IMG/VR virus record: IMGVR_UViG_3300031134_000639
DNA length: 37,372 bases
Strand: one strand, 5' to 3'
Source: a virus
Taxonomy: Duplodnaviria; Heunggongvirae; Uroviricota; Caudoviricetes
In this document: positions 7,829-33,219 of the stretch, piece after piece
Layout: every line of letters starts with the position of its first letter
Numbering within the stretch: position 1 is the stretch's first letter
Program-made: the position numbers and the translations under genes
The notes under the pieces: model-generated
What the model was told of the DNA's origin: nothing
What the model saw: only the letters and a program-made list of their open reading frames with translations
Database searches by the model: none

Positions 7829-7835
7829 ACCGATA
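7829..7835 (+). promoter_or_regulatory. ACCGATA motif upstream of pilin 1
   Basis: One of about 10 intergenic, sense-oriented CCGAT(A/T) motifs upstream of genes. Confidence 0.55.
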
Positions 7836-7897
7836 TTCATACTAGGTGAGAATATTGCTGTGTTCTCCCTTTTTCATCGAACCTCCAAGGATAATAA

Positions 7898-8668
7898 ATG
7901 TTTTCAAAGATAAAATCGTTTCAACAACAAGAGGAAGGCTTTACTCTTATTGAGCTTCTAGTCGTAATCCTCATTATTGGTATTTTAGCTGGTATTGCTA
8001 TACCTGTTTTCTTGAACCAGCAGAAAGCTGCTATCAACGCTAGTGTCAAATCTGATGTGCGCAACACTGTGTCTAACGTAAGTTTGTTCCTAACACAGTA
8101 CCCTTCCGCTGCACCTGCTAACAACACTCAGCAGACGGGGCCGACTGTTGGCGCTAACGCTAGTACAGACCCTAAGCCAGTGATTGTTGCTAGCCGCACT
8201 GACACAACTGTTGCTGTTGCTTTCAGTTCAGGTAAGTATGATGTGGAAGGCTATAACAGTAAAACTGTTTTCAAATACAACTTCCAGTCTGAGCTAGGTA
8301 AGTATGGTACAGCTAGTATTGGCGTGGTGGATACTGCTGCTATTCCAGGTGCTACTAGTGGTGCTTCCACACCTCCAGCGGCGGCGGCAGCTACCATGAC
8401 TGCTCCTACCAAGACAAGCGATCCAGCTGGCTATATTGACACTGTTTCTTGGGGTATCCCAACAGGTTACACTGCCTCTAACGTGACCTACAACGTTACG
8501 TCCACTGGAGCTAACAAGTATAACTTCCCAGGCTTGAAAACAAACAAGTTTGAAGTTAGCAAAGATGACGTTGGCTATGGTGACACTTTTGTGACTGTAG
8601 TAGCTGTTGATAGTGCAGGGAAAGAAATTGCTCGGGCAACAGGTATGGTTCAGCTTGGATATGAATGA
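7898..8668 (+). CDS. Type IV pilin-like protein 1
   Basis: Class III signal peptide MFSKIKSFQQQEEG|FTLIELLVVILIIGILAGIAIPVFLNQQ (G-1, F1, E5); beta-rich C-terminal domain. Confidence 0.92.
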   Translation: MFSKIKSFQQQEEGFTLIELLVVILIIGILAGIAIPVFLNQQKAAINASVKSDVRNTVSNVSLFLTQYPSAAPANNTQQTGPTVGANASTDPKPVIVASRTDTTVAVAFSSGKYDVEGYNSKTVFKYNFQSELGKYGTASIGVVDTAAIPGATSGASTPPAAAAATMTAPTKTSDPAGYIDTVSWGIPTGYTASNVTYNVTSTGANKYNFPGLKTNKFEVSKDDVGYGDTFVTVVAVDSAGKEIARATGMVQLGYE

Positions 8669-8693
8669 TAGGTAGTTATTAAACGATTATCAT

Positions 8694-8744
8694 AAACAGT
8701 TGAGGGGTGCCACACAAAATTTGTGTGGCACCCCTCAACTGTTT
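8694..8744. terminator. Near-perfect 51-bp palindrome between convergent genes
   Basis: AAACAGTTGAGGGGTGCCACACAAA-A-TTTGTGTGGCACCCCTCAACTGTTT. Confidence 0.85.
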
Positions 8745-8750
8745 GTTTAG

Positions 8751-10529
8751 TTATGCTTTAGCGATACCATACATTTGGTAGGGCAGTTTTTTGTCTGAGG
8801 CCTGTGTCCAACGTGTCTCATTTAAGTGTGGTACAGGTAGAGCCTCGTACTCTCCTTGTCTGTCCGCGAACATCGGGTTCAGTGTGTTGTGAGGCAGTAG
8901 CATGTTCTTGGTGGAGAAAGTCACTCGCAGGAAGGTTCTAAGGCCCGGGATGGTCTTAAGTGGTGTTCTATGCACAGCGTAGGGGTCCATCAGATATAGA
9001 TGGCCCGGTTTTACTGTGTAGATATTCTCCTCAGATGCTTGCTTGTCAAACTCTGTGAACAGCCTCTCATGAGTGTCATCTAAGTGTCCTACGAAGAACG
9101 GCTGTAGACAAAACTCTGTTCCAGGGTTTGTTGTGAGAATGTAGGAGTGAGCGCTGACTTCTTTCTCAGTGAAAGCTCCACCCTGTAAATCATCACCGTG
9201 GAAGCCTGGGAAGCGATGGGTTTTGCCTTCCTCTATTTCACGGGTGTCGTGAGTGATGTGCGCAACCTGGCTTTCATATAGCGGGTTATGGCATTTGTCG
9301 TAAGTGAAGATGCGCTCTAGGATGCCCTGAATTGGTTTTAGCTCTGCGGGCACCATTATCTCTTGACTGTCCCACCATTTCAGAGGCATACGGAGAGTGT
9401 TCGGAATTGACTGAATCTTGTTCACGTCTGCTGTTCCCAGGTCAATGGGTAGGCGAGGGTTAGTATACTTTCTTGGCTCAAACGGTTCGGTCATGTCCCT
9501 GTATGTGGGTGAGTACGGCTGAACTTTAGGATACCATCTGTCTGGCGCTGTGATTGCTTTACCTGGTGTCAACGGAGCATCATCAAAGGTTCCTATGTCC
9601 TGTTTAGCTTTGCTTCGTTCCTGTTGTACAGCCTCTTCTGTTTTCGCTGTTGGATCTACCTCAATTTTAGCGTCTAGACCGTAGTAGTCGTAGTTCACTT
9701 CTGAGTCTGGTGCACGCAACCAGTCACGAATGTCTAGCTTGAAATTTGGCTTCTCTTGTTCAAGCATCGGGTTCAAAGTGTTGAACTCAATGGGTAGCGG
9801 AGCGTTCGCTACGGTAATACGGATGAACCCACGATGGGTGTCCTCATGGATTGTAGGTGTTCGGTGGACCATATAAGCATCCATCAGGTACAGGTGTTGG
9901 CTGATGCCTTTGAAGATGTTAACATCTTTAGCTTGTTGGTCAAAGGCCTTGAAGAAGTTAGTTATATCCTCATCGTAGTGCTTGATGAAGAAAGGCTGCA
10001 TACAGAACTCTGTGGGGTTGTTTGTTGCGATAACATATGAGTGTTCTGCAAGCAGTTTCTCTTTGAATTTCCCTCCTTGGAGGCCGTCTACATGCCAACC
10101 AGGGAACCGTTGGGTCTCTTGGGCTTTAACGAAACCGTAGTCTGTGGTTATGTGAACTTCACAGTTCTCAAACTGTTCGTTGATCATGCGTTCGTACTCT
10201 AGAACCTGCATGAGGAAAGGTTGAATGGCTTTAAGCTCCTCGGGGATGTAAGCGTTTGTTTCTCCTACAGGTTTTACAGTGAGTCGTAGGACGCGAGGTA
10301 GGTGCTCTACGGCACTGATATCAAAGAAGCCTAAGTCTACAGGTAGGCGCGGGGAAGTGTAATGGTCAAAACTGAACGGTGTTGTCAGATGTGTGTACAC
10401 TGGTGACCAAGACTGGGCTTTAGGCATCCACACGTCCCTGACCTCAACCACATCCCCAGTTGAACTTATCTCAGCGGCATCGTATTGGATGTTATCCACT
10501 GTCTTGTTATCTTCTGGTTTGTATGCCAT
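8751..10529 (-). CDS. Tandem-duplicated 2OG-Fe(II) dioxygenase-like protein
   Basis: Two homologous halves, each with HxD (H146-V-D148; H444-G-D446), a distal His (VHRTP; H222, H520) and an R-x-F-x-R-x-T strand. Confidence 0.75.
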   Translation of the reverse strand: MAYKPEDNKTVDNIQYDAAEISSTGDVVEVRDVWMPKAQSWSPVYTHLTTPFSFDHYTSPRLPVDLGFFDISAVEHLPRVLRLTVKPVGETNAYIPEELKAIQPFLMQVLEYERMINEQFENCEVHITTDYGFVKAQETQRFPGWHVDGLQGGKFKEKLLAEHSYVIATNNPTEFCMQPFFIKHYDEDITNFFKAFDQQAKDVNIFKGISQHLYLMDAYMVHRTPTIHEDTHRGFIRITVANAPLPIEFNTLNPMLEQEKPNFKLDIRDWLRAPDSEVNYDYYGLDAKIEVDPTAKTEEAVQQERSKAKQDIGTFDDAPLTPGKAITAPDRWYPKVQPYSPTYRDMTEPFEPRKYTNPRLPIDLGTADVNKIQSIPNTLRMPLKWWDSQEIMVPAELKPIQGILERIFTYDKCHNPLYESQVAHITHDTREIEEGKTHRFPGFHGDDLQGGAFTEKEVSAHSYILTTNPGTEFCLQPFFVGHLDDTHERLFTEFDKQASEENIYTVKPGHLYLMDPYAVHRTPLKTIPGLRTFLRVTFSTKNMLLPHNTLNPMFADRQGEYEALPVPHLNETRWTQASDKKLPYQMYGIAKA

Positions 10530-10591
10530 ATTTAAGGTCCCCTAAGGTTGAAGTGTCATATAAATAATCGGCTTGGGAGGAGCATATTGTG

Positions 10592-10641
10592 CATATGCGT
10601 GGGAAGGCAGATGATGTATTTCTTACCTTCCCACGCATATG
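10592..10641. terminator. Inverted repeat, probable terminator of the MinD-like gene
   Basis: 16-bp arms CATATGCGTGGGAAGG / CCTTCCCACGCATATG. Confidence 0.75.
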
Positions 10642-10644
10642 GTA

Positions 10645-11667
10645 TTATTCTTTAGTCAAAATGGATGCAACTTTTTTGATGCTTGAGTTGAACTGGTTTT
10701 TTGCTTTGTAGGCTTTAGCAAGTTCGGTAGTTACACTTGCGCGTTTAACAGCTAGCTCGGTCCCTAGTGCTGCTAAAATTGTGATTTCGCTGAAGTATTT
10801 TTCTATTAGCTCTTTACCCAAAAACTGACCTGGCAGAGTCATGTTAGCAATCAGCCCAACTTGATTTAAATTGAAGCGTCTATCCGGTAATCCGTTTAGA
10901 TCCTCTTCCAACTCTTTTTTCCATCTGAACAGATGAGGCAGAGGGTTTCTATCAAGGTCTGCTACATACAGGACTGCATCTGAAATGTTTACAATGCTAG
11001 GGAATGTTTCATCTAGATAAGTTATTCCTGTGTCAACGAAAACAAATTCGTAGTTTGCTTTCAGATTAGCGAGCATGTCTACATAGAACTGGGAGGAGAG
11101 GAGATCAGCTTTTCTGTCGCTACGTTTGGGAGATAGAACAACATCTATGTCTAATGAGTTGTCGTGAATAATGGTTTTTCTGAGAGCATGAATCGTTTTT
11201 TCATCTGAAAGGTAGTAGTTCAACATAGTTGGGGTAGCTTGGCTAACGTAATAGCTCAGCTGACCATTTCTTATGTCAGCATCGACAATTATTGCTGTTG
11301 CACCAGTTTTTCTGACAGCTGCTGCAAGAGCTAAAGCGACACTAGTTTTGCCTGTTCCCCCTTGGCTTGAAGCCAAAGTTATGATACGTCCTTCACCTTT
11401 TGACGAAAAGCCTAGACCAGCAGAAGAAGCAAAACTGTCGGTTGCAGTAGCAGAAATAAGAACGTCATCTCGGATGACTCCCTGTTCTGAGAGCAGGTCT
11501 CGTAGGGTTTCTTCTGTCTGAGTGCCTTTGTTAAGGGTCAAATGGAAACCGCCTGCTTGAACGTCAGGGTCTGTGGTTGTAATATGAATGGTGTCATTCT
11601 TTTTCAGATATGACACTCGTACGTTTTCTAGGGTAACGTATTTTTTGTTTTCGTCAGTTTTTGACAT
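10645..11667 (-). CDS. MinD/ParA/CpaE-like P-loop ATPase with an extra N-terminal domain
   Basis: IITLASSQGGTGKTSVA (deviant Walker A), IIVDAD, FVFVDTG; SD AAGGA. Confidence 0.85.
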   Translation of the reverse strand: MSKTDENKKYVTLENVRVSYLKKNDTIHITTTDPDVQAGGFHLTLNKGTQTEETLRDLLSEQGVIRDDVLISATATDSFASSAGLGFSSKGEGRIITLASSQGGTGKTSVALALAAAVRKTGATAIIVDADIRNGQLSYYVSQATPTMLNYYLSDEKTIHALRKTIIHDNSLDIDVVLSPKRSDRKADLLSSQFYVDMLANLKANYEFVFVDTGITYLDETFPSIVNISDAVLYVADLDRNPLPHLFRWKKELEEDLNGLPDRRFNLNQVGLIANMTLPGQFLGKELIEKYFSEITILAALGTELAVKRASVTTELAKAYKAKNQFNSSIKKVASILTKE

Positions 11668-11724
11668 GGTTCATCCTTAAATTGTTTGGGTCTGGTTTCC
11701 GCCAGTTCGGTTGTTACATCTATT

Positions 11725-11732
11725 GTATCGGA
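11725..11732 (-). promoter_or_regulatory. TCCGATAC motif upstream of the MinD-like gene
   Basis: Reverse complement of GTATCGGA, about 57 nt upstream of the ATG. Confidence 0.5.
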
Positions 11733-11817
11733 CTACATAGTTTCACCTCTGTTTCCATGCACGGCAAGGTCAGGAACACTTTCATGATATAGTAAGGTGA
11801 ACGGATTCGGAGGGTTT

Positions 11818-12477
11818 ATGCGTCAGAAGTATAACCAAGCAGTAGTTGGGCAGAAGGTAACTGATGCTTTAGATGCCTTCAAATATGAGTCCGGTTCTAA
11901 GCTAGCTGGCACCAAGGTGTTTGCTGGTCCTGGCAAGTCAGCTTCTAAGATCGTGTGGGCTTTACACAACTTCCAAGCTTGGGTTCAGCCTGACTCTCCA
12001 GATGCTATCTTCATAACAGTGAACTCTTCTCTAGCTGAAAAGCTACATCCTCACGACTATCTTAGATACGTTGGTATCAGACACTTCGGAAACATGTACT
12101 GGTTTCAGGTTGAAGCAGAGTGCAAACTCCTCTCTTCGGAGCGCTTTGAGATAACGGAAAGGAAACTTTTCTGGTCTCGGATGAGTTCATTTGCTGTGGA
12201 GCCTACGAAACTTGAGAGCGTGTTCGCTAGACCTTGGCTTTTAGGCAAACCAGATTCTAGTACTTTTTACTACGAGCTGATAATGTCAAGTACCAACATT
12301 CAACTTGCAAATACCAAGTTGGAGTCAAAAACTCTGTCAGGGCATAGTAGTTGGGTGGATCTTCATAATCTATACTTCCACCCTGAAGTGTTCGCTGTAG
12401 ATCAGGGTATGCCTGGTGTTCCGGAGGAGCATCTTAAGAAACTGTTTGATGTACCAACTAAGCTGATAATGACATAA
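11818..12477 (+). CDS. HxHD/Hx4H family paralog 5
   Basis: HPHDYLRYVGI...AEC...WVDLHNLYFHPEVF...PGVPEEHLKKL; TGA-TATAGT at 11785-11793 and SD GGAGG support ATG 11818. Confidence 0.85.
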   Translation: MRQKYNQAVVGQKVTDALDAFKYESGSKLAGTKVFAGPGKSASKIVWALHNFQAWVQPDSPDAIFITVNSSLAEKLHPHDYLRYVGIRHFGNMYWFQVEAECKLLSSERFEITERKLFWSRMSSFAVEPTKLESVFARPWLLGKPDSSTFYYELIMSSTNIQLANTKLESKTLSGHSSWVDLHNLYFHPEVFAVDQGMPGVPEEHLKKLFDVPTKLIMT

Positions 12478-12529
12478 AATAATCTTAGCGCTACCGAAAA
12501 CTACCTCACTATTGTGGTACCATAGTAGA

Positions 12530-13360
12530 ATGAGTTCTTACTGGCCGACTATGACACGGTTCTTTGCTATGTTGCTTGGCCCAGTTCGTGATTTTGTAGA
12601 GGCAACAAAGCAAGCTCTAGGAGACATAGTTTCCCAGTTCAAAAATCCTGGTGTCACTAAAAGGTTTTTTGCTGTTCCACTCAAAATTTTTACAACTCCA
12701 TTTGTTGCTGTTGCCTCTATGTTTGAAAGCAGAGCAAAAATTAAAGCTCATGGGGTGGTAGCTGGTCTAGACAGCTTGCATACTGAAGGCAAACATCTTC
12801 ACAAATTCTTCAGGTATTGGGCTTATCTTTTTACTCTTGATCTTCTAACTAAGAAGCGGTTCTCATGGGTTGACAAGAAGTTAAGTGTCTACGACTATGG
12901 TTGGGGAACTATGATAGCTTCTCTTCACAGAGACCAGGCTAAACTTTTTCATGAGCATGACCGCATGCAATATATCCGGGTTAAACTTTTTGGGCTAATA
13001 CCGTACTGGTTCCAGATAGAAAGAAACTGTGCTGAGTCTCCTTCTTTTACTCTTAGAGCTTGCACCACCCGTTTCTGGTGGATGCTTGCCGTGGTCCATA
13101 ACTCTAAGACGTTTGACAAAATTGATTTGTCTGACCTTGAAAAGTTTTTGTTACCTCCCGGATGGGATTCGTCTCTCACCACATGGAGTGCATCAGCGCT
13201 TAGTTTAAGGCAGACTTTAGATACTTTATCTCCAGACTACGATTGGGTTGACCTACATAACCTGTATTACCATCCAAGCGTTTTCGCTGCTGACCATGAC
13301 TTTGAGGGAATCCCAGGTGAGTATGTCCGAAAGGTACTTGGAGTACCCGAAAGACTTTAG
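12530..13360 (+). CDS. HxHD/Hx4H family paralog 6 (probably leaderless)
   Basis: HEHDRMQYIRV...RNC...WVDLHNLYYHPSVF...EGIPGEYVRKVL; TGG-TACCAT-N6-ATG 12530. Confidence 0.85.
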   Translation: MSSYWPTMTRFFAMLLGPVRDFVEATKQALGDIVSQFKNPGVTKRFFAVPLKIFTTPFVAVASMFESRAKIKAHGVVAGLDSLHTEGKHLHKFFRYWAYLFTLDLLTKKRFSWVDKKLSVYDYGWGTMIASLHRDQAKLFHEHDRMQYIRVKLFGLIPYWFQIERNCAESPSFTLRACTTRFWWMLAVVHNSKTFDKIDLSDLEKFLLPPGWDSSLTTWSASALSLRQTLDTLSPDYDWVDLHNLYYHPSVFAADHDFEGIPGEYVRKVLGVPERL

Positions 13361-14221: not shown

Positions 14222-14290
14222 CACAAGAACAATCAAACTTGATTTGTGCTATAGTTGAGATACCAACTTATTTCAACTACGGAGGCAATT

Positions 14291-15001
14291 TTGTTTGAAG
14301 GGCACGAATCGGCCTTAGCTAGAGCTAACAACTTTGCGGCAAGCTATGTCCTTGGCTCAGGTAACTTAATTACCTCAAAAAAGTATCAGTTTTGGAAACG
14401 TTTAAACCAGACCAACTCACTGAAAGAAGACGCTCATGTTTGGGCGGCAGCTAACTTAAACGTTCACAAGATTGGCAACATGTTTGCTGTGACGGTAAAG
14501 AAGAAACACGGCCTCCATGACCACGACCGTCTTAAATTTGTTGGAATCAAAAGTCTTTTTAGCACCAGATGGTATGAAGTATCCCCTAGATGCGATAAGA
14601 CAGATGTTACGCCTGTGTACATTAGCAGCGAAGTAGCTCACTACGGTTTTTGGGCTGAACTTGCAAAGCACAGCCAACGTGGGTTCAACAATGACTACTT
14701 CAGGACTGAGTCTGTTGTAACTTCAACTGAGGCTGGCTTAGAAGGCTTTGTAGGCGAAGTTAAAAAGGGAAGCGACCCTGATTATCGGGTTCGTGCTGAA
14801 GGAATGCGTAGGCTCAGCCAGCTGCTACCAGAAGGTATGGGCTGGGCTAACGTACACAACTACGTGTATCACCCAGATGTTTTCACTGAAAATACTGAGC
14901 TTGAGGGTGTGCCCATGGTTTATGTGAAGCAAATGTTTAACTTGCCAGATGATGCTCAACTTCTTGCAAGCATAAAGAGCGAACAACTGGTAGCTTCATG
15001 A
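14291..15001 (+). CDS. HxHD/Hx4H family paralog 7
   Basis: HDHDRLKFVGI...PRC...WANVHNYVYHPDVF...EGVPMVYVKQM; TGC-TATAGT at 14247-14255 and SD GGAGG support TTG 14291. Confidence 0.85.
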   Translation: MFEGHESALARANNFAASYVLGSGNLITSKKYQFWKRLNQTNSLKEDAHVWAAANLNVHKIGNMFAVTVKKKHGLHDHDRLKFVGIKSLFSTRWYEVSPRCDKTDVTPVYISSEVAHYGFWAELAKHSQRGFNNDYFRTESVVTSTEAGLEGFVGEVKKGSDPDYRVRAEGMRRLSQLLPEGMGWANVHNYVYHPDVFTENTELEGVPMVYVKQMFNLPDDAQLLASIKSEQLVAS

Positions 15002-15258: not shown

Positions 15259-15322
15259 ATTAGGTTAGTCATGAATCACCGATATTATTAAGGAGCCAGA
15301 TAACAAGTGAGGTGATGTTAGT

Positions 15323-15580
15323 ATGAGTAACAACGAAAAACTTAACACTAAAAAGCCGAAACGCAACATCCAGCGGTTAAGCTATTGGAATCAAATTTCA
15401 ATACCTGTAGCTATCGCATATCTAATAATAGCTGTGTTCTTCACAAGCGTAATTTTCATCAACGTAGACATGAGCGAGTCCAGCTGGGTAATTTTTGTTG
15501 GATTCCCTGTTATGGTCATCATAGAGTTCTTATTTTTGTGTATAACACTGCCGTTTATCTTCAAGCCAACTAAAAGGTAA
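15323..15580 (+). CDS. Small two-TM membrane protein
   Basis: SD GAGG; two hydrophobic segments; ACCGATA at 15278-15284. Confidence 0.75.
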   Translation: MSNNEKLNTKKPKRNIQRLSYWNQISIPVAIAYLIIAVFFTSVIFINVDMSESSWVIFVGFPVMVIIEFLFLCITLPFIFKPTKR

Positions 15581-15645
15581 CTGGTTTTCTTTAAGTTACC
15601 GATACTTCTGTAGTATGCTTGAAGTATAATCTAGCGGGAGTTTTT

Positions 15646-16699: not shown

Positions 16700-17200
16700 T
16701 TATTTTTGTATGGTTGTAGTTGATGTACAAGTTGAAACAAAACCACCTGCACGGCTAGAGTAAATTAGGCGTGTTGTGTCATTGCCTCCAGAGAAAGAAC
16801 TTCTGGGAGATGCAGCTTCAATGCAGAACCACTGTCCAGGTGCCTGACCGGAGTAAACCCCAGCGTCATAAGAATGAAGACGCGTACCTTCGGAGAAGTT
16901 GAAGTCTTTGTTGAACACACCATTGTTGGTGTTCGTAAGGCCAGTGTCTCCATCGTTTCTCCAATCCCTTTGATAATCAGGGAACACAGTGTTCGGGCGA
17001 TCAACCGCATACGTGTGATATATGGTTGCTAGGTTCTTTACATCAGATTTTAATGCTGCATCGCCAGCTTTCTTTTGCTGGTTTAAGAAAACCGGAATGG
17101 CGATAGCTGCGAGGATACCAATAATGAGAATAACGACAAGAAGCTCAATCAGGGTAAACCCGGCTTCGTCTTTGCTGAAGTTGCGGAATCTTGCGAACAT
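16700..17200 (-). CDS. Type IV pilin-like protein 2 (short, with a C-terminal Cys pair)
   Basis: MFARFRNFSKDEAG|FTLIELLVVILIIGILAAIAIPVFLNQQ; WFCIEA...STCT. Confidence 0.92.
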   Translation of the reverse strand: MFARFRNFSKDEAGFTLIELLVVILIIGILAAIAIPVFLNQQKKAGDAALKSDVKNLATIYHTYAVDRPNTVFPDYQRDWRNDGDTGLTNTNNGVFNKDFNFSEGTRLHSYDAGVYSGQAPGQWFCIEAASPRSSFSGGNDTTRLIYSSRAGGFVSTCTSTTTIQK

Positions 17201-17315: not shown

Positions 17316-17322
17316 TATCGGA
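17316..17322 (-). promoter_or_regulatory. TCCGATA motif upstream of pilin 2
   Basis: Reverse complement of TATCGGA; reads TCCGATAA on the minus strand. Confidence 0.5.
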
Positions 17323-18239: not shown

Positions 18240-18952
18240 GGCGAGCTAGCCTTTTCACCACCGACATAGTTCAGGAAGTATCTGACACCCATGACACTTT
18301 CTTCCCAGCAAATGCGGGATAGTGTCCCTGGCTTATCGTTGTCTGTTACAATGGTCCCGTCAAGACTGAAAGCAATCAGTACGCGATTGACAAATCGTGT
18401 AAGCATCTTCTTCCTATTGTTGCCAAAGTAGTAGTTACCTTTGGGCAACACGAGAGGGGCGAGGTCATACTTGTTTAATAGATAAGAGGTTGTCTTGTCA
18501 GAGTTGTAGTACTTAGCTCCTTTTTTCTCTGTCACCAAACGCTCCCGCTTTATTTCTTCAGGGCTTAGTAGGTGGAGCAAGAATTTCTGTGAGCGTAACT
18601 CTCGGTCATATGCCATAAATTTGTTCATTAGTATTGTGGCAGGCATGGGGACCCCAGAACCAGATGACGGGTTAACCTTTTTTGCGCCAAAATTAAAGGG
18701 AGACAGCTTTTTTGACAGAGGAGGCTTAAGCTGCTCATTGTATGCCTCACTAGCAACCTGTAGAAATGTCTCCAGGAAGCCTTGTACGGCATTCTGCGGG
18801 GATATGGTGTTCATTGTAAGCGCTCGTACGTACTCTTCTGGTAAGCCGTCAGCGAGCAGCTGAGCGACTTGAAGGCTGTCAGAGTTTGAAGTCAGCATGG
18901 CGTAATCCCAAAGTAGTCCTTGTTCAAGCTCAGGCTTAGGAAGAGATATCAT
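18212..18952 (-). CDS. Hypothetical protein (probably leaderless)
   Basis: 246 aa ORF; TAGACA-N17-TATAAT-N6-ATG; 3' end overlaps paralog 8 by 28 bp. Confidence 0.8.
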   Translation of the reverse strand: MISLPKPELEQGLLWDYAMLTSNSDSLQVAQLLADGLPEEYVRALTMNTISPQNAVQGFLETFLQVASEAYNEQLKPPLSKKLSPFNFGAKKVNPSSGSGVPMPATILMNKFMAYDRELRSQKFLLHLLSPEEIKRERLVTEKKGAKYYNSDKTTSYLLNKYDLAPLVLPKGNYYFGNNRKKMLTRFVNRVLIAFSLDGTIVTDNDKPGTLSRICWEESVMGVRYFLNYVGGEKASSPQILHVNNS

Positions 18953-18958
18953 AAAACA

Positions 18959-18987
18959 ATTATATCATCATTATGCATGTGTGTCTA
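18959..18987 (-). promoter_or_regulatory. Sigma70/SigA-type promoter for a leaderless transcript
   Basis: TAGACA-N17-TATAAT with TGn extension, 6 nt before the ATG. Confidence 0.75.
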
Positions 18988-20245: not shown

Positions 20246-20397
20246 CTATACTTCCGTGTTGAAATGAGCAGAATAAAACATTTGTTATTCTATACTATTA
20301 TCTGCCTATCAACTTTCAAAATAAAATTACACCTTGTCAAATATAGCCAACTCTAGTACTTTGAGGGACTACTGACAACATTTATTTAACTTTTGGA

Positions 20398-21156: not shown

Positions 21157-21306
21157 TTTTCCTCCTGATAGGACGCTGGTAAAATACCTTTACATATAGT
21201 AAATATCCGCTGTATAAACCAATTATGAAAAATAGCTTTATCAAACATCATCAAGTGCCTCTATAAGAGTCGAAAATTGCAGAATACTACTAAGATGGTA
21301 GAGCAT

Positions 21307-21349
21307 AAAAAAGTGTGGCCCATCCGTCTTGGATGGGCCACACTTTTTT
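21307..21349. terminator. Inverted repeat, probable terminator
   Basis: 19-bp arms AAAAAAGTGTGGCCCATCC, 5-nt loop. Confidence 0.85.
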
Positions 21350-21359
21350 CGCAATATTT

Positions 21360-22401: not shown

Positions 22402-22561
22402 GTTTTACTTCTTTCTTGTTGTTTTGTCCGAGCGTCCAAGTAACCTCGGTGGTTGTTTACAATTATATGCTAGCACCTCTTTTCAATGCTGTCAACATTC
22501 TACGCAAAATAGTTTAGTTTGCAAGCAAATACCGATACTTCTAATGACCTTAAGGAAAACT

Positions 22562-23257: not shown

Positions 23258-23330
23258 AGTTGCACAATAAGCATTTTTAGGGTGTGATGACCGATACTTC
23301 TTCTGTACAAAGAGCGAAAAGGCAGCGGGA

Positions 23331-23621
23331 ATGCAAGAGGATACAAAACCAACTAAAAAACGCATCATGAACCCTGATGACAGCAACTATGATGCATTGC
23401 TAGCAGCGAGTGTGTTTACCATACTGTTGCTAGGTACCGTCTGGCTTATGCATTTTATTGACGGCTGGATGAGAGTCCCAGTCACAGCTGCGGGTAGCAT
23501 CACCTCTTTGGTTGTCGCCATAATAGTATGGAAAGCATACCGCAAGCAGCATGTCTTGAATCAGAAAAAATGTGATGAAGCTGAGTCAGCTTCTAACAAC
23601 ACTGACAACGCTGCCAGGTGA
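23331..23621 (+). CDS. Small two-TM membrane protein
   Basis: Two hydrophobic segments; ACCGATA at 23290-23296. Confidence 0.7.
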   Translation: MQEDTKPTKKRIMNPDDSNYDALLAASVFTILLLGTVWLMHFIDGWMRVPVTAAGSITSLVVAIIVWKAYRKQHVLNQKKCDEAESASNNTDNAAR

Positions 23622-23780
23622 GATATCAATCTGCTTGATACCAAGCTTAATACTGTAACCCTTAGTGGTCTCGGTTAGATACCCGGACAACGCTCTACGC
23701 GAGGCCAAACGGATAGTTACAGTTGTGTTCACGTTCTTCTTGAGCAAATCTTCGTTGTTTGCGTTCTCTTTAATAGTCAT
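23586..23780 (-). CDS. Small hypothetical protein
   Basis: TTGACT-N17-TATAGT ends 9 nt upstream of the ATG; 36-bp convergent overlap with the preceding gene. Confidence 0.6.
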   Translation of the reverse strand: MTIKENANNEDLLKKNVNTTVTIRLASRRALSGYLTETTKGYSIKLGIKQIDISPGSVVSVVRS

Positions 23781-23953
23781 AATATACTCACTATAGCATG
23801 CCCTCAGGGAACAGTCAACTATGGGTTTACAATCCTGGTGATAAACCGATAAACCTTGAACAGGGTACCTGGTAAGTTATTAAACTGCTTGTGAACGGTC
23901 CCCAGCGGGTTAGTAATATCAGAGCACAGTTAACTAAACACCTAGGAGTACAA

Positions 23954-24844
23954 ATGACGAACAGTAATGCGGTAGGTACCGTTGAAACAGCCGTACCTAC
24001 AGAAAGTCAAGCAAAAGTCTGGCGCAAGAATAGCATCATTGTTATTCTCAGTGGCATAGGTATCTCTATTGTATTAGGCTTTAGTAGTCTATTGTATCTA
24101 AACTCCGACTGGAACTTCTCAGGTTATGCAGCACAAACAGCTCTACTAGTTTCATTCGCTGGGGTTTTAACTTATCTAGGCTTAGTGTCATATAATGTCC
24201 CGGCTCGCCGCTGGCTATCAATGTTGGCAATTGGCCTGTCCTGGATTGCTACAGCCTATAGCACCTTGTTTGTATGGGATATTCTCCAGTCAGACAACTT
24301 CCTTCACTTTGAAGGCAAGCTGCTAGCTGTAATATGGTTGTGGACAGCAATCACTTTAGCTAGCTCTCTCCTTATTGCCCTATCATCAGGTCTAACTAGA
24401 GCACCTTATATTTTCACATACGTAACTGTAGGTTTAGGTATCCTTCAGGGTATCTTTGGTTCAATTAACATCCTAGGTTCATTCAACCCTGCAACTCAAA
24501 TTGCATTTGATCGCGTGCTGATGGTGAACTACAACTTCATCGTCGCCAGCCTTGTCCTAGCTGTTGCCTTCTCGCTAATCCGTCGATTCTGGAATAATGA
24601 CATGACAGAGATGAAAAAATTTAATGCTCAGTCATCTGAACAGCCGTCAGTTGTCATCTCAACTAACTCACTACAGAACGTTGCTGCTCATTCTATGTTT
24701 GCTCAAGAGGATCCTGACGAGTTGATTACAAGACTTCTAAATGAAGACTTCATTCGCATCTCTGAAGAACGCAAGAAAGCGGAACCTGTTATCCCAGCAG
24801 CAGTAATGCCTATTGAGGAAATTTCTGGGAGTCAGAACTTATAA
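23954..24844 (+). CDS. Multi-pass membrane protein (about 6 TM), paralog A
   Basis: SD AGGAG before ATG 23954; about 6 hydrophobic segments; GKLLAVIWLW...LLIALSSGL. Confidence 0.85.
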   Translation: MTNSNAVGTVETAVPTESQAKVWRKNSIIVILSGIGISIVLGFSSLLYLNSDWNFSGYAAQTALLVSFAGVLTYLGLVSYNVPARRWLSMLAIGLSWIATAYSTLFVWDILQSDNFLHFEGKLLAVIWLWTAITLASSLLIALSSGLTRAPYIFTYVTVGLGILQGIFGSINILGSFNPATQIAFDRVLMVNYNFIVASLVLAVAFSLIRRFWNNDMTEMKKFNAQSSEQPSVVISTNSLQNVAAHSMFAQEDPDELITRLLNEDFIRISEERKKAEPVIPAAVMPIEEISGSQNL

Positions 24845-25749
24845 TGAGTACAGCAAGTCAGGCAGTAGCCAAAAAGACAGGAGTCTCTTTAGGTAGAAAA
24901 ATTGTTCTCATTGTCATGATAGCAACCTACAGTATCTCTGCAATCATTGGTATTGTAACTATCTTATCTTTCACTAATGGCTCCTCAAGTGTTTGGGCCG
25001 ACTCTGAAACTGAGTGGAGAACAATAGCGACAACAGCGTTAATTGGGACTAGCTCCCTCATCATACTTTGTGCCCTTGCAGTAGCTAACATCAAAACATG
25101 GCGTATCTTAGGATGGGTCACAGGGGCGACAGGGTTCGCTTCAGCGTTACTGACCCTCTTCTTTGTTTGGGGAGTAATAAGCTACGACAGAACAATAGAC
25201 AGCTATAGTTCCTACAGTTCAAGCTCAGACAACATACGTTGGTTGACTATGGATGCTTATGAGAACCTAATCAAGCTAGATGGAGTTCTTTGGGTTTGGT
25301 CATTTATCTTAGTGTTCACATGCCTTCTTATAGCTGCGACCCACGGGTTAAGCAAAATCGCTACAGCTTTCGCCTACATTTCAAGTGGTCTTGGTATGCT
25401 AAACGGAGTGATAATAACTTACCTTGTGTTCATAGGGACAGAGGACAGTTTCAATCTTGAATCACTGATAAAAACAGTTGCTGTAACATCCATTCTAGCA
25501 GTTCTTGGAACGCTAATAACTCTTACCCTAGCTTTGGTGCAGAGAACGACTGCTAAGAAGCAGAAGCCGGTACAATCTGCTACTTCTGTTGTCGGTGTCC
25601 AAGTCCCCGCTAGCGACAACACTCAGGCATCATACCAGTCGTCAACAATTACTGAGCACAGTCTGTCCCTGCTACAGGAGCGCTCAAAAGAACGCGGCTT
25701 AGACATAAATGACTACGTTGAGCGACTTCTCATAAAAGATGAGGACTAG
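24844..25749 (+). CDS. Multi-pass membrane protein (about 6 TM), paralog B
   Basis: TAATG coupling to paralog A; KLDGVLWVW...LLIAATHGL; soluble C-terminal tail. Confidence 0.85.
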   Translation: MSTASQAVAKKTGVSLGRKIVLIVMIATYSISAIIGIVTILSFTNGSSSVWADSETEWRTIATTALIGTSSLIILCALAVANIKTWRILGWVTGATGFASALLTLFFVWGVISYDRTIDSYSSYSSSSDNIRWLTMDAYENLIKLDGVLWVWSFILVFTCLLIAATHGLSKIATAFAYISSGLGMLNGVIITYLVFIGTEDSFNLESLIKTVAVTSILAVLGTLITLTLALVQRTTAKKQKPVQSATSVVGVQVPASDNTQASYQSSTITEHSLSLLQERSKERGLDINDYVERLLIKDED

Positions 25750-27669: not shown

Positions 27670-27736
27670 GTCTACCTTGCTTTCAAAGTCACGGATTTAT
27701 GTACGAGAGATAGTTTATAGGAAAGTCATCCTAAAG

Positions 27737-28060: not shown

Positions 28061-28066
28061 AGTCCT

Positions 28067-28119: not shown

Positions 28120-28125
28120 AACTGT

Positions 28126-28599
28126 ATGACAAACACTAACCTTTATAATAACCCAGTTACTGCATTGAAGAGGGCTGTTGATGCAGCTGTTGAGAATGTG
28201 AAATCAGGTGGTGGCCCCTTTGGTGCTGTAATTGTTTTCCCAGATGGCAGAGTATTTGAAGGGGTGAACAGAGTTACAGCTAACAATGACCCAACTGCTC
28301 ACGCTGAAGTACAGGCTATCCGTAACGCTTGCGCAGCAATTGGTTCGTTCTCTTTGGAGGGAGCAGTTCTGTTTACCTCATGTGAACCTTGTCCTATGTG
28401 CCTTGGCGCTGCCCTGTGGTCTAGGGTAGACAAAATTGTTTACACTGCTGACCGTTTTGATGCTGCTGACGCAGGTTTTGATGATGCCGAGTTCTACGCT
28501 CTTCTTGAGCAAGGCAATATTGCGGAAAGAGTGGAAACAGGTTATCATCTGGCACCTTTTGATGAGTGGCGGTCAAAAGTCAACCGAACAGACTACTAA
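28126..28599 (+). CDS. guaD: Zn-dependent nucleoside/guanine deaminase (cytidine deaminase fold, Bacillus GuaD type)
   Basis: GGPFGAVIV, NDPTAHAEVQAIRNAC, TSCEPCPMCLGAALWSR, AGFDD, FDEW; start moved to ATG 28126. Confidence 0.88.
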   Translation: MTNTNLYNNPVTALKRAVDAAVENVKSGGGPFGAVIVFPDGRVFEGVNRVTANNDPTAHAEVQAIRNACAAIGSFSLEGAVLFTSCEPCPMCLGAALWSRVDKIVYTADRFDAADAGFDDAEFYALLEQGNIAERVETGYHLAPFDEWRSKVNRTDY

Positions 28600-28604
28600 T
28601 ATAG

Positions 28605-28642
28605 GTGTGGCCCTGAACGAAGTTTCTAGTTCAGGGCCACAC
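28605..28642. terminator. Inverted repeat between convergent genes
   Basis: 14-bp arms GTGTGGCCCTGAAC / GTTCAGGGCCACAC. Confidence 0.8.
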
Positions 28643-28673
28643 TTATATGTTTATGTGAGCATATGAGGTTAGG

Positions 28674-28961
28674 TCAACTTTGGCTTTTAAGGGCCTTCTC
28701 CCGCAGGATATTAAGAATAGAAAGGGCTGGAACTCCGCTGCCACTTGAGACATTCTGCATGAGGGCAAAAGAAAGAACCATAAGTCCTTCAACAAGGTCC
28801 TTGTCGGTAACACCAGCTTGCTTCATCTCATGGAAAATTTTATCTTCGTTTCCTTGCAGGGTCTGCTCTAGCAGATTAATGGAAAGAAGATAGTTGCTCA
28901 TAATCTCACGAGGGGTGTGGTCCGTGTGCTCAGGGACGTTCTCATCACTCATCAGATTCAC
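28674..28961 (-). CDS. Hypothetical protein
   Basis: 95 aa ORF overlapping the upstream gene; true start may be M4. Confidence 0.7.
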   Translation of the reverse strand: MNLMSDENVPEHTDHTPREIMSNYLLSINLLEQTLQGNEDKIFHEMKQAGVTDKDLVEGLMVLSFALMQNVSSGSGVPALSILNILREKALKSQS

Positions 28962-29214
28962 CTACAGCCTTGTTGAAAGCGATAAGTGCAACATCACAGG
29001 GGGACTTGAGAGTGGGCTTGTCTGCGGCTCTGAATGAGTTTACTCCACTAGCGCCATAGGCAGGCTTTTTGTCTAAACGGACAACCCGAATCATCTTGGT
29101 TGTGAAACCTACAACCCGGAACGGTACCATGTGCTTGTAGCCACCATCTGTTGACACAACAATGTCGTTCTCATTGAGAGGGTTACCTTGAAAATCTACC
29201 TGATTTGAACTCAT
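28945..29214 (-). CDS. Small hypothetical protein (SH3/KOW-like start)
   Basis: DFQGNPLNENDIVV...FRVVGFTTKMIRV; TATAAT and GAAAG upstream. Confidence 0.75.
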   Translation of the reverse strand: MSSNQVDFQGNPLNENDIVVSTDGGYKHMVPFRVVGFTTKMIRVVRLDKKPAYGASGVNSFRAADKPTLKSPCDVALIAFNKAVGESDE

Positions 29215-29309
29215 AGTTTCTACTTTCTTGTGGTCGTGAGATAGAGCGTGCTTCTATTATACAAGAAGACGCACCAAAAAGCAAGTTTATAAAAATCTTA
29301 TTTCAAGAG

Positions 29310-29338
29310 TTGACATGCTCTAATTCTTGGGTTAAAGT
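29310..29338 (+). promoter_or_regulatory. Sigma70/SigA-type promoter of rIIA
   Basis: TTGACA-N17-TAAAGT; SD AAGGAG at 29367-29372. Confidence 0.75.
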
Positions 29339-29381
29339 AGGGTTATCACTTATTCGCCCCTTATCTAAGGAGTACCAAGCT

Positions 29382-31583
29382 ATGAAGATTAATTCCACTG
29401 TTGCAACTGTTGAGACTTCCGCCGTGTTTGATACCACCACACGCATGAGTGTTGAGGATGAGTCTCTTGTCTTCATCCTCTCCAGCCTAACCAACCTGTA
29501 CTCCAACCGTGAGGCAGCTGTTCTTCGTGAGACTGCCGGTAACGCTTACGACTCCCACATTCTTGCTGGGCAGACTCGCCCGGTTGAGGTCACTCTCCCC
29601 ACTGCTCTGAATCCTTCTCTTGTCATCCGCGACTACGGTGTGGGCATGAGCCGTGATGAGCTTGTCAACATCTACTCCAAGTACGGAGCTTCAACGAAGC
29701 GTGACACCAACAAGCAGATTGGTGCGTTCGGCTTGGGAGCTAAGTCCCCGCTGGCTCTCGTTGACCAGTTCACTGTTATCTCTGTAAAGGATGGCATCAA
29801 GAACACGGTCCTCATCTCTAAGGGTACTGATGGTGTTGGTGGACTTAACTTCCTTCCTGAGAAGGCTACGGATGAGGCCAACGGTGTGACCGTTGACATT
29901 CCCATCCCGGATGCCGGTAAGATGGTCCGCGCATCTGAGGACATGTTCAGCGGATGGCCTCTCGGGTCTGTTCTCATCAACGGTGCCGCACCGAAGTTCT
30001 CCATTCACGACACCGCGCAGTCCAACAAGATTGCAGACGCCGGTTGGACTGCTGTTTCTCCCGAGCGATGGGGTAACACTGTCGTCAAGGCTTTCATTGG
30101 TCCGGTCCTCTACACGATTGAGCTTAACGAGGCTTTCAACGACTACTCCACCCGCCAGGAGGCGCTGGGAATCATCAACGGTTTCCGATCCACTGACGTG
30201 TACCTGAACCTGCCTATTGGCTCTGTTGAGCTTACGCCGTCACGTGAGAACCTTGTTTACAATGACGTTTCTCGTGCCGGTATCCTTGCTGCCCTTGACG
30301 AGTTTAACCGTCAGTACACCATCTCCATTGAGACTGAGCTTAACAAGATTGAGGACCGCACAAAGGCTTTCGGCTTCATTGCTAACCATGTCCGTAACGG
30401 TGCTTTCCCTAACGGTCTCTCGTGGAAGGGTGAGTCTCTTCCGGCATGGGAGGAGACCGGCGTTGACTCTTGGACTATTGGTGTTGTTGACCTGGACACC
30501 ACCAGTGCAAAGTACACTACTCCGGAAAAGTACAACCTGCTTTCCTACCAGTTGCACAACAGCCTCATGTCTCTTAAGTCTAGTGTCGTTGTGCAGAATG
30601 TGAAGGACCTTGAGGCAACCAAGCGTCACGTCCGTGATTATGTTCGTTCCACCGGCGAGCGTGTCATCAAGTTTGCTTTCACTGAGGGCGCAGTCACTAA
30701 CCCCTGGCTTGCTGTTGCAATCGGTTCAACGATTGAGGCTTCAGAGCTTGCAGACCAGGCTCGTGCTTACCGTGTTGAGGCTGACCGTAAGGCTCGGGAG
30801 CTTGCAAAGCTTGGTCTTACCTCTGGCCGTATCAAGGCGAACGAGAAGTTCTCAACCATTGAGGCGCTTAGCTCCTCCTGGTACAGCAAGAAGTTCACCG
30901 TCACTGAGCGTGCAGCCAACACATTCACTGAAGACACAAAGGTCATGTACCTGATGGTGGATGAGACTGTTGACGCGGTGAACCACAAGCTAAACCATGC
31001 AATTCGTGAGTCTGTCAGCGCTACCGGTGGTGGCTTCGGTCGTCGTGCTGATGGTTTGGAACTGGTTATCGCTGAGCTACTTAAGTCAGACAAGGATGTG
31101 GCTCTCATTAAGCTGCCTAAGGGGCGTAACCTTGGTAAGTTCAAGGAGATTTTCCCTAAGGCTGTGCCTGTCGCTGAGGTTGTCATCGAGTTCGTTAACA
31201 CCACTCGCCTGAACTCAACTGACCTTGAGAAGGAGTGGTTCAGTGTCAACATGCACAAGGAGCTTGATTACGCAATTCTTCTCAACGAAGAGGTCGTCAG
31301 CCGCGTAGGTGAGATCAGCAACGTTGACACACGTGCTTGGGTTCTTGCAGGTGCTAACAACGGTCACCGTAAAGCTTCAGCAGCGATTGGCGCTCTCGCT
31401 TCCAGCAGCCGCACCATTCCTTCAGAGGCACTAACTACTGCTGTCAAGGAATATGTTGACAGCGTTAAAGTCGCCCAGACAAAGGGTAACCGCAACTACG
31501 GCCTACTTAAGTCTGTTCAGAAGTTTGACGCCACTGACGTGATTGAGTACGTCAACATGAAAGACGCTCAGGCTAACAAGTAA
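29382..31583 (+). CDS. rIIA: rIIA-like protein (N-terminal GHKL/HATPase_c ATPase)
   Basis: LYSNREAAVLRETAGNAYDSH, IRDYGVGMS, YGASTKR...IGAFGLGAKS, GSVELTPSRENL; adjacent to rIIB; start moved to ATG 29382. Confidence 0.88.
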   Translation: MKINSTVATVETSAVFDTTTRMSVEDESLVFILSSLTNLYSNREAAVLRETAGNAYDSHILAGQTRPVEVTLPTALNPSLVIRDYGVGMSRDELVNIYSKYGASTKRDTNKQIGAFGLGAKSPLALVDQFTVISVKDGIKNTVLISKGTDGVGGLNFLPEKATDEANGVTVDIPIPDAGKMVRASEDMFSGWPLGSVLINGAAPKFSIHDTAQSNKIADAGWTAVSPERWGNTVVKAFIGPVLYTIELNEAFNDYSTRQEALGIINGFRSTDVYLNLPIGSVELTPSRENLVYNDVSRAGILAALDEFNRQYTISIETELNKIEDRTKAFGFIANHVRNGAFPNGLSWKGESLPAWEETGVDSWTIGVVDLDTTSAKYTTPEKYNLLSYQLHNSLMSLKSSVVVQNVKDLEATKRHVRDYVRSTGERVIKFAFTEGAVTNPWLAVAIGSTIEASELADQARAYRVEADRKARELAKLGLTSGRIKANEKFSTIEALSSSWYSKKFTVTERAANTFTEDTKVMYLMVDETVDAVNHKLNHAIRESVSATGGGFGRRADGLELVIAELLKSDKDVALIKLPKGRNLGKFKEIFPKAVPVAEVVIEFVNTTRLNSTDLEKEWFSVNMHKELDYAILLNEEVVSRVGEISNVDTRAWVLAGANNGHRKASAAIGALASSSRTIPSEALTTAVKEYVDSVKVAQTKGNRNYGLLKSVQKFDATDVIEYVNMKDAQANK

Positions 31584-31589
31584 GACCAA

Positions 31590-31637
31590 TCTATGTGGGG
31601 AAAGTGACTTGCACATGAGTTGCTTTCCCCACATAGA
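31590..31637. terminator. Inverted repeat between rIIA and rIIB
   Basis: 15-bp arms TCTATGTGGGGAAAG / CTTTCCCCACATAGA plus an inner wobble stem. Confidence 0.75.
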
Positions 31638-31648
31638 AATGATATAAT
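31620..31648 (+). promoter_or_regulatory. Promoter of rIIB
   Basis: TTGCTT-N17-TATAAT with TGn extension; the -35 box overlaps the hairpin's right arm. Confidence 0.65.
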
Positions 31649-31693
31649 CATTAAACACTAAACTTTCCACACCCCACAACGACTAGGAAAACA

Positions 31694-33103
31694 ATGTCTA
31701 CTTTCTATAACCTCTACACAGGACGCAATTCCTCTGGTATCACAATCATCTTTGAGAACACCAACCCCCGGTCAATCACCAATGACCACCCATTCTTTGA
31801 GCATGTCAAAAGCATCTTCCTCACTACAGCGCCTGAGGACATTGACGAGAGCCAGATTCTGGATCTTATCAACCCGGTTAGCAAGATTGGTGCCGCTCTA
31901 ACTAAGTTGTCCAGCCGCGTTACCTACAACGGTACCGACATTTTCTTTGACGGTGATGTTGTCAACAACTCACTGAGCGGACAGATCGTGAAGGCAATTC
32001 AGAACGGTGAAGAGGAATCAGCCTACCAGCCTCTCATTAACTTCCTTGAGAAGGTCAGCACCAACCCTAATCCGACAGCTGTTGAAGGTCTCTATGACTT
32101 CCTTTCCAGGTATGATTTCACAATTGCACCTGACGGTGACTTGCTCGCCCACAAGAAGGTTACCCCAGCAGGCACAAGCTTCCACAGCGGTTACGGTATC
32201 GTAGATGGAGTTGTTTACAAGAACTCACAGCTTCCCAACGCTGTCGGTAGCGTGGTTGAGTTCCCGCGTTCTCGTGTGGACGCCAACCAGCTTCACGGTT
32301 GTTCCACCGGACTGCACGCTGGTTCCTACGATTTCGCTGTGAACTTCGCTACGGGCATTCTTCTAGTTGTCAAGATCAACCCTCGTGATGTTGTCTCTGT
32401 CCCCTATGACTTCGCTTTCCAGAAGATTCGCACCTGCCGCTACGTGGTACTACACGAGGTTGAGACAGAGCAGCCTGCAACTGTCTGGGACCGTGTTCTA
32501 CAGAAGCACTCCCCTGAGAATGCTACCCCTGAAGAGGAGCCTGAGGAAGAGGAAATCGCAGAGGACAGTGCGATCATGCGAATTCTTCACCAGAGCAAGG
32601 ACGAGCAGGAAGAGGTCGGTTTCGGCTACACCAAGCTTGATGGCCGCTACGTGTCTGTTGACAGGTTCATGCCGGAGAGCTTCAGAGGAGACACTGTCAC
32701 TGGCTTGACTGACCGTGGTTACCGAACCTATGTTGTTGATGGCATTGAGGACATTGCATTCCTGTCCAAGGAGAGGAACAAAGAAGCTGGTGTAGATTCT
32801 CTCATCGACTCCATGAATGTGTTCTTCAAGGCTGCACATGATAAGGGAGTCTCCGATGAGCATGTAATCAAGATTTTGGATGAGATCACAGAACTGCTCA
32901 ACAAAAGCCACGTCAACAAGGAGCTAGCTGCTACTCAGCTTCCTGATGGCGAAGGCCTGAAAGCTATTCGTGATTCAGCTGGTAATGTTTCATTCTACGT
33001 CCGCACTCAGACTAAAGATGGGAAGACAACAGCAGTCGGAGCGCCCATCTTCAAGACTGGCGATGCTCTCGCTGATGAGGTCTTTGATGCTCTAGCTGAG
33101 TAG
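31694..33103 (+). CDS. rIIB: rIIB-like protein with a C-terminal extension
   Basis: DGDLLAHKKV, NAVGSVVEFPRSRVD, CSTGLHAGS, VKINPRDVVSVP, KIRTCRYVV. Confidence 0.88.
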   Translation: MSTFYNLYTGRNSSGITIIFENTNPRSITNDHPFFEHVKSIFLTTAPEDIDESQILDLINPVSKIGAALTKLSSRVTYNGTDIFFDGDVVNNSLSGQIVKAIQNGEEESAYQPLINFLEKVSTNPNPTAVEGLYDFLSRYDFTIAPDGDLLAHKKVTPAGTSFHSGYGIVDGVVYKNSQLPNAVGSVVEFPRSRVDANQLHGCSTGLHAGSYDFAVNFATGILLVVKINPRDVVSVPYDFAFQKIRTCRYVVLHEVETEQPATVWDRVLQKHSPENATPEEEPEEEEIAEDSAIMRILHQSKDEQEEVGFGYTKLDGRYVSVDRFMPESFRGDTVTGLTDRGYRTYVVDGIEDIAFLSKERNKEAGVDSLIDSMNVFFKAAHDKGVSDEHVIKILDEITELLNKSHVNKELAATQLPDGEGLKAIRDSAGNVSFYVRTQTKDGKTTAVGAPIFKTGDALADEVFDALAE

Positions 33104-33112
33104 CTTTCAGCG

Positions 33113-33161
33113 AAAAATGTCTATCCCCCGCATGTAACCTGTGCGGGGGATAGACATTTTT
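33113..33161. terminator. Inverted repeat, terminator after rIIB
   Basis: 20-bp arms AAAAATGTCTATCCCCCGCA, 9-nt loop. Confidence 0.85.
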
Positions 33162-33212
33162 GTCTTTAGGGGACAATAAATGACAAACTTTCATGTTTTT
33201 TCTCTGATGTTG

Positions 33213-33219
33213 ACCGATA
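33213..33219 (+). promoter_or_regulatory. ACCGATA motif upstream of the LAxTG surface protein
   Basis: 34 nt upstream of ATG 33254, just downstream of the rIIB terminator; no SigA-type promoter noticed. Confidence 0.55.

Follow-up and report, generated by a model that had tools for sequence, protein, structure and literature searches.

Promoters of the sigma-28 group (FliA, SigD and WhiG; group 3 sigma factors) follow the pattern TAAA-N15-GCCGATAA. The late promoters of phage T4 consist of TATAAATA at -10 only and are read by the truncated sigma factor gp55 together with gp33 and the sliding clamp gp45. In the open complex of Pseudomonas sigma-28, as determined by cryo-electron microscopy, the fliC box spans (-15)GCCGATAA(-8), A-11 is flipped, G-12 and C-13 are contacted, and position -7 is neither conserved nor flipped (PMC12784957). 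For several families of Actinomycetota, a control of type IV pilus genes by WhiG homologues has been predicted, and the actinobacterial WhiG promoters were described as T(A/C)AA (or CTCA)-N16-GCCGATAA with a highly conserved -35 element (PMC12871210, a 2026 preprint). Here we analyse the short word CCGATA in a 37.4-kb stretch of DNA (37,372 nucleotides (nt), hereafter the window) of the Caudoviricetes record IMGVR_UViG_3300031134_000639. A first-pass annotation, made from the letters of the window, had proposed that this word marks a second promoter class with a sigma28-like -10 box. Orientation, type of gap, exclusivity towards other promoters, the absence of a -35 element and the spacing to leaderless genes all support this proposal, and we consider CCGATA to be probably the -10 element of a second, clade-wide promoter class which is sigma-28-like and relies on the -10 box only.

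Placement of CCGATA in the window and in related genomes

The motif positions of the first-pass annotation were all found to be correct, comprising seven ACCGATA on the plus strand, two TCCGATA and one GCCGATT on the minus strand and two variant sites. CCGATA as such occurs ten times in the window, and nine of these copies are intergenic and directed at the next gene. The tenth (14783-14788, minus strand), absent from the earlier list, is the sole coding copy, lies inside and antisense to gene 14255-15001 and is probably not functional. The total number is unremarkable (10 versus 6.6 expected; 14 of 100 shuffles reach 10), and nine of the ten copies fall into the 10.3% of the window that a simple gene call leaves intergenic (binomial p = 7.6e-9). 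CCGATA is the top intergenic-enriched hexamer of the window, with nine intergenic copies against 0.67 expected from the intergenic dinucleotide content (Poisson p = 4e-8), and ACCGATA is found seven times versus 1.9 expected, a number reached in none of 100 shuffles. The 33.6 kb of coding DNA contain one copy against about six expected from whole-window shuffles; this rarity hints at selection against internal copies.

The intergenic excess, for which the first-pass annotation had suggested a comparison of intergenic with coding DNA, extends beyond the window to its held-out flanks and to related loci. In the flanks, i.e. about 9 kb on each side of the window on the same contig, four of six CCGATA copies are intergenic, sense-oriented and located 34-135 nt before starts. 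About 160 kb from the loci of eight relatives were retrieved via a 592-amino-acid (aa) protein of the window, which serves as clade marker, and via rIIB. When these loci were pooled with the DNA of the window's genome (212 kb), 36 of 64 copies were intergenic versus 11.6% expected (p = 8e-18), and CCGATA was again the top intergenic hexamer in the relatives L094 (a 696-kb contig) and L120. The pooled copies are also distributed unevenly among the types of gap: co-directional gaps contain 20 sense copies and one antisense copy, divergent gaps harbour 13 of the 36 intergenic copies, and convergent gaps, which make up 18% of the intergenic DNA, hold only two.

No CCGATA enrichment was detected in rIIB-bearing phages of IMG/VR (actinophages of 130 kb and others) or in GTDB contigs, which are therefore placed outside the motif-bearing clade, nor in three distant giant phages of IMG/VR. 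Judged by these comparisons, the motif is specific to the clade of the window.

Exactness of the box

In the pooled clade DNA, none of the 18 one-mismatch variants of CCGATA is significantly enriched in intergenic DNA except the AT-rich CCTATA. CAGATA (18/129 intergenic) and CGGATA (9/64) behave as background. The sites GCAGATAA (20298-20305, minus strand) and GCGGATAT (21203-21210, minus strand), which lie upstream of pilins 3 and 4 and had been assigned to the class, thus exist in the sequence, but their membership is not supported. The former of the two lies in the spacer of a sigma-70-like site, TTGAAA-16-TAGTAT. The GCCGATT site at 10566-10572 (minus strand), likewise correctly located by the first-pass annotation, may belong to the class, to which the marginal enrichment of CCGATT (7/35 intergenic) lends slight weight; at the orthologous position, L120 has TCCGATAG and L115 has GCCGATG.

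Column counts over 37 aligned sites gave A (21), T (10) and G (2) for the base just before the core and a weak preference for T at the positions 14 and 13 nt upstream of the first C (23/37 and 22/37, respectively). A -35 box is absent at any spacing in these sites and no base is conserved 16-36 nt upstream, which confirms the failure of the first-pass annotation to find a consistent TAAA element. The CGA core of the sigma-28 -10 box is present in all members and six of the eight consensus positions of GCCGATAA are kept, with -8 being free.

Two other readings of the box were tried and rejected. An SPO1-late-like arrangement (CGTTAGA-N18-GATATT) fits two sites of L120, but no upstream column is conserved over the 37 sites. 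A sigma-70 hexamer GATAnn, resembling GATACT of the T7 A1 promoter, would have the same spacing and is disfavoured by the lack of a conserved T-7 and by the obligatory CCG.

Predicted position of the transcription start

In the relatives, an open reading frame of 58-654 codons begins with ATG or GTG 13-17 nt after the first C for 12 of 36 intergenic copies (14 nt in five cases, 15 nt in three, 16 nt in two, 13 nt and 17 nt in one each). With a null frequency of 2.7% per intergenic position, the probability of finding 12/36 is 1e-10. As this distance leaves no room for a ribosome-binding site, the 12 reading frames should be translated from leaderless mRNAs, whose 5' ends are located at or just before the start codon. 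In the numbering of the solved sigma-28 open complex, +1 falls exactly 14 nt downstream of the first C, and this distance is also the mode of the observed starts. From the leaderless cases we infer that transcription begins some 14 nt downstream of the first C.

Separation from sigma-70-like promoters

None of the nine genes preceded by CCGATA carries a sigma-70-like site (at least 9 of 12 matches) upstream, versus 12 of the 24 other window genes with an upstream gap (Fisher p = 0.012). CCGATA genes and sigma-70 or extended -10 genes thus form non-overlapping classes in the window. Near-consensus promoters of the sigma-70 type are found at 6332-6369 and, on the minus strand, at 18950-18987 and 23778-23818; their -10 elements end 6-9 nt before the start codon, and the genes behind them should therefore be leaderless as well. 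The first consists of TTGACA-17-TATTGT (6332-6360, plus strand), which ends 6 nt before ATG 6367, and the second of TAGACA-17-TGnTATAAT (18959-18987, minus strand), the -10 element of which ends 6 nt before ATG 18952.

The two kinds of promoter replace each other at the 592-aa marker gene. A CCGATA-type box precedes this gene in the window, L115 and L120, and a TGnTAGnnT extended -10 element is found at the equivalent place in L116, L117, L124 and L125, which is the pattern expected of alternative promoters. The 592-aa gene is the only one common to the window and the retrieved loci of the relatives, in which the ATPase, the pilins, DUF2071 and the other motif-driven genes have no orthologue for such a comparison. 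The two strains that were compared are 99% identical and hence too similar to reveal selective conservation. L117 (Ga0247807_10000037), with ca. 22% non-coding DNA, has its own repeated intergenic words, GTAGAG and TGTTAG/GTTAGA, which may represent another repeated control element.

Genes preceded by the box

The first-pass annotation had located the boxes 24-115 nt upstream of a start. Their upstream sense placement stands, and the range becomes 30-121 nt when counted between the first C and the likely start codon. The ACCGATA box at 7829-7835 (plus strand) is positioned 68 nt before the pilin-like gene 7898-8668, with a predicted transcription start near 7844, and is located in a divergent gap without a sigma-70-like alternative. 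On the minus strand, the one-mismatch box GCCGATT lies 42 nt before the marker gene 8751-10529, and TCCGATA at 11726-11732 lies 64 nt before the gene of a MinD/ParA-like ATPase (10645-11667). The plus-strand box ACCGATA at 15278-15284 is found in a co-directional gap, in sense orientation and 44 nt before the gene of an 85-aa membrane protein (15323-15580); it is followed by a box at 15598-15604 (plus strand) in front of the gene of a 347-aa protein, for which GTG 15646 behind GGGAG (47 nt) is the likely start rather than TTG 15619. A second TCCGATA box (17316-17322, minus strand) precedes the pilin-like gene 16700-17200 by 121 nt. The box at 22531-22537 (plus strand) belongs to the gene of a DUF2071 protein, which starts either at ATG 22562 behind AAGGA (30 nt, the likely start) or at the in-frame ATG 22544 (12 nt). 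Two further plus-strand boxes are located at 23290-23296, 40 nt before the gene of a 96-aa membrane protein (23331-23621), and at 23845-23851 (ACCGATA), 45 nt before the gene of a 317-aa membrane protein (23891-24844), which forms an operon with 24844-25749. The last box, ACCGATA at 33213-33219 (plus strand), directly follows rIIB and lies 40 nt before gene 33254-35557. The sites at 15598, 22531 and 23290 share the longer form ACCGATACTTCT.

The product of gene 33254-35557 (plus strand) comprises a signal peptide and fn3 repeats and terminates in LAYTG, a hydrophobic stretch and RRKK, as would be expected of a phage-encoded, sortase-anchored wall protein. The window encodes four type IV pilin-like proteins with an N-terminal methylation motif, whose genes share the leader GFTLIELLVVILIIG.

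Pilins, the LAxTG protein, the ATPase, membrane proteins and the DUF2071 protein, named as targets by the first-pass annotation, are indeed preceded by boxes in the window. Reading them as a surface regulon is not borne out: in the relatives the same box precedes the genes of RNase H, the ribonucleotide reductase subunit NrdF (nrdF), an SNF2 helicase, NucS, an ADP-ribosyltransferase and others, so that the class is neither pilin-specific nor a regulon for surface remodelling. In three of four relatives a box also stands after rIIB, whatever gene comes next, e.g. in L092 (at 11955) and L094 (at 11851). We regard CCGATA as a general phage-specific class, whose timing is, as a guess, perhaps middle.

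Source genome and probable host

The sequence of the window is contained, without a difference, in two longer contigs, the 624,949-bp k141_624373 of ENA record ERZ27247443 and the 663,129-bp Ga0308157_10000032 of JGI, and its source is a giant, uncultured, phage-like genome. Besides the genes of the proteins mentioned above, the window contains the end of a class Ib ribonucleotide reductase gene, rIIA, rIIB and the genes of a dCMP deaminase and a NERD nuclease. Many of its proteins have no match in Pfam or PHROGs; PHROGs scans of 20 window proteins of no assigned function returned nothing useful, and no RNA family of Rfam and no tRNA was detected in the window. No DNA match to GenBank phages was obtained, and querying IMG/VR with single window proteins gave no close relatives.

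The closest relatives of rIIA and rIIB are found in phages of Microbacterium, Arthrobacter, Streptomyces and Rhodococcus and on contigs binned with Microbacterium and Lysinibacter (contigs of Microbacteriaceae metagenome-assembled genomes). These relatives, the LAxTG sorting signal, which is of the class E sortase type, and the leaderless mRNAs and TGnTAGnnT -10 boxes point to a probably actinobacterial host. The clade carrying the motif consists of uncultured giant phages with contigs of 0.6-0.9 Mb, whose hosts are probably actinobacterial.

Other observations in the window

The 592-aa protein (8751-10529, minus strand) is built from an internal tandem duplication, with each half containing RFPG(W/F)H(V/G)D ... 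GG ... HSY ... H(R)TP, and by these motifs looks like a metal-binding cupin or 2-oxoglutarate oxygenase. Among the proteins seen it is the most conserved: its counterparts on contigs reaching 907 kb in length share 70-86% identity, and a contig of 885 kb encodes the identical protein. No sequence match was obtained in Pfam, PHROGs or the PDB; single-domain relatives are encoded by jumbo phages, e.g. phiRSL1, SCTP-2 and RsoM2USA.

Long perfect hairpins at 21311-21350, 28603-28650 and 36633-36675 lie between gene ends and have a nearly identical stem (AAGTGTGGCCC ... GGGCCACACTT), to which the stem of a hairpin at 8696-8742 is related. The hairpins with the shared stem resemble a set of related two-way terminators. 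Among the words enriched between genes, GCCACAC ranks second, all 8 of its copies being intergenic.

Comparison with known promoter systems

The CCGATA class shares with the sigma-28 promoters the identical central CCGATA, a core intolerant of change, the lack of a conserved T-7 and a predicted start 14 nt downstream of the first C, in agreement with the solved structure. The occurrence of the box before type IV pilin genes also parallels the predictions for WhiG in several actinobacterial families. In contrast to sigma-28 promoters, the phage boxes lack a -35 element at any spacing, have A or T at -15 and a free -8, and precede replication, effector and surface genes instead of flagellar genes.

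As in the late promoters of T4, to which the first-pass annotation had drawn a parallel on account of gp55, one short and exact -10 element carries all sequence information and no -35 element is present. In both systems, a phage-specific class exists alongside early promoters of the host type, and both phages possess rIIA and rIIB. However, CCGATA differs from TATAAATA, no homologues of gp55, gp33 and gp45 were found in the DNA examined, and the genes behind CCGATA (RNase H, nrdF, helicase) look early or middle rather than only late. The host-type extended -10 or leaderless promoters of actinobacteria (TGnTAnnnT) are related in that they need no strong -35 element, can drive leaderless mRNAs and are found at the equivalent place upstream of the marker gene in relatives. 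They deviate from the CCGATA class, which has G in place of T-12, an unconserved T-7 and a requirement for C-14 and C-13, and in the window the two never precede the same gene.

Discussion

Based on these features we propose that a polymerase with a sigma-28-like (group 3 type) domain 2/3 would recognize the box at -14 to -9, holding C-13 and G-12 in the duplex and flipping A-11, and would begin transcription about 14 nt after the first C. A contact of region 4 with a -35 box would be unnecessary. In the window, the box would drive about ten units, namely two pilin-like genes, the MinD-like ATPase, three small membrane proteins, the DUF2071 protein, the 347-aa protein, the LAYTG-anchored fn3 protein and probably the 592-aa marker gene; the remaining units would use host-type sigma-70 or extended -10 promoters.

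Several observations weigh against this interpretation. The boxes lack the sigma-28 -35 element, which is TAAA or, in actinobacteria, T(A/C)AA, and only 2 of 37 sites have G-15, so that a standard host FliA/WhiG holoenzyme would be expected to read the boxes poorly. None of the nine sites of the window itself is leaderless; their predicted leaders of about 16-107 nt mostly contain GGAG-type ribosome-binding sites, and the start position is therefore carried over from the relatives. In L119 (Ga0206103_100014), whose marker protein is 73% identical, none of 11 CCGATA copies is intergenic. Finally, no sigma gene was found in the 55-kb extended region around the window.

Candidates for the reading factor were sought in several ways. 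A conserved sigma factor of 209-217 aa with regions 2 and 4 is encoded by two distant giant phages of IMG/VR, at 1327-1956 in L139 (481 kb) and at 1315-1968 in L140 (452 kb), one copy being located directly upstream of nrdF; both phages lack the CCGATA motif. A word-index search with this sigma factor returned only near copies from the same distant clade, and a profile search gave 2254 matches, with more than 2000 members in a 50%-identity library. A hidden Markov model of the family, run on some 400 kb from the clade and from related loci, gave no significant match, and neither it nor the word-index search linked the family to the clade of the window; hhalign comparisons of the 46 proteins of the 55-kb region with the family gave probabilities below 5%. 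PHROGs and Pfam scans of 40 window proteins revealed no late-transcription proteins, and a literature search restricted to open-access text yielded no published CCGATA phage promoter.

Given the promoter class, the next question concerns its reader. A phage-encoded sigma factor needing only the -10 box is a plausible one, to which we would give a little less than an even chance, and it is favoured over an unaided host factor because the -35 element that is highly conserved in WhiG promoters is absent here. A host WhiG/FliA factor, with or without a phage helper, is a rather doubtful reader. The specific scenario that a host factor of the sigma-28 family reads the boxes, by which the phage would tie its genes, including the pilins, to the motility, pilus or development programme of the host, appears unlikely, despite the identity of the core with the sigma-28 -10 box and the same inferred spacing. 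This scenario would agree with the probable actinobacterial host, as indicated by the rIIA/rIIB relatives, LAYTG, leaderless mRNAs and TAGnnT -10 boxes, and the predicted control of type IV pilus genes by WhiG (PMC12871210) would have its parallel in the phage pilin genes. However, both the highly conserved -35 element of WhiG and G-15 are missing, and the box precedes housekeeping genes of the phage (RNase H, nrdF, helicase), for which dependence on a conditional host sigma factor would be risky in a lytic phage.

Two more distant alternatives dispense with a sigma factor or with a promoter. A short and exact element without -35, confined to one giant-phage clade, might be the promoter of a phage-encoded, sigma-independent RNA polymerase of either the multisubunit phiKZ type or the single-subunit type, and giant phages often carry their own polymerases. 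We consider this very unlikely, as the agreement of six letters and of the start distance with the sigma-28 -10 box would be a coincidence and no RNA polymerase subunit was found in the 55 kb of the window region or in the ca. 160 kb of the relatives' loci; promoters of single-subunit polymerases, moreover, usually comprise about 20 conserved bases. The box could also be imagined as an operator for a DNA-binding regulator of the phage or as a signal in the 5' leader for RNA processing or translation control, since an RNA cleavage site or the site of a monomeric regulator would look alike in being intergenic, sense-oriented, exact and conserved. Such a role is highly improbable for a single asymmetric 6-7-mer without palindrome or repeat partner, of which 13 of 36 copies reside in divergent gaps that must contain a promoter and offer no alternative candidate. 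The start codon follows at a distance that varies from 30 to 135 nt or else is fixed at 13-17 nt, the latter without a ribosome-binding site; this suits a -10 element with leaderless transcripts rather than a translation operator, and the box is interchangeable with an extended -10 promoter at the marker gene.

Compared with the first-pass annotation, the geometry of the start site, the intolerance of the core to mismatches, the exclusivity of the classes, the promoter turnover at one orthologue and the rejection of two variant sites are new. Going one step further, we tentatively put forward, as possible rather than probable, that the clade encodes its own sigma-28-derived factor which no longer has, or makes no use of, -35 recognition and transcribes most post-early genes from exact CCGATA boxes, with many leaderless mRNAs beginning 14 nt after the box, and that the promoter type used by the hosts for type IV pili and motility was thereby taken over for the phages' own pilins and wall-anchored proteins. 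If CCGATA indeed acts as proposed, it would be a natural case of sigma-28-type recognition without a -35 element and would bear on the stringency of alternative sigma factors. It would further provide a simple and exact marker of transcription units in the largest phage genomes known, and the sequence alone would suffice to assign the genes of such phages to a host-type or a phage-type expression class.

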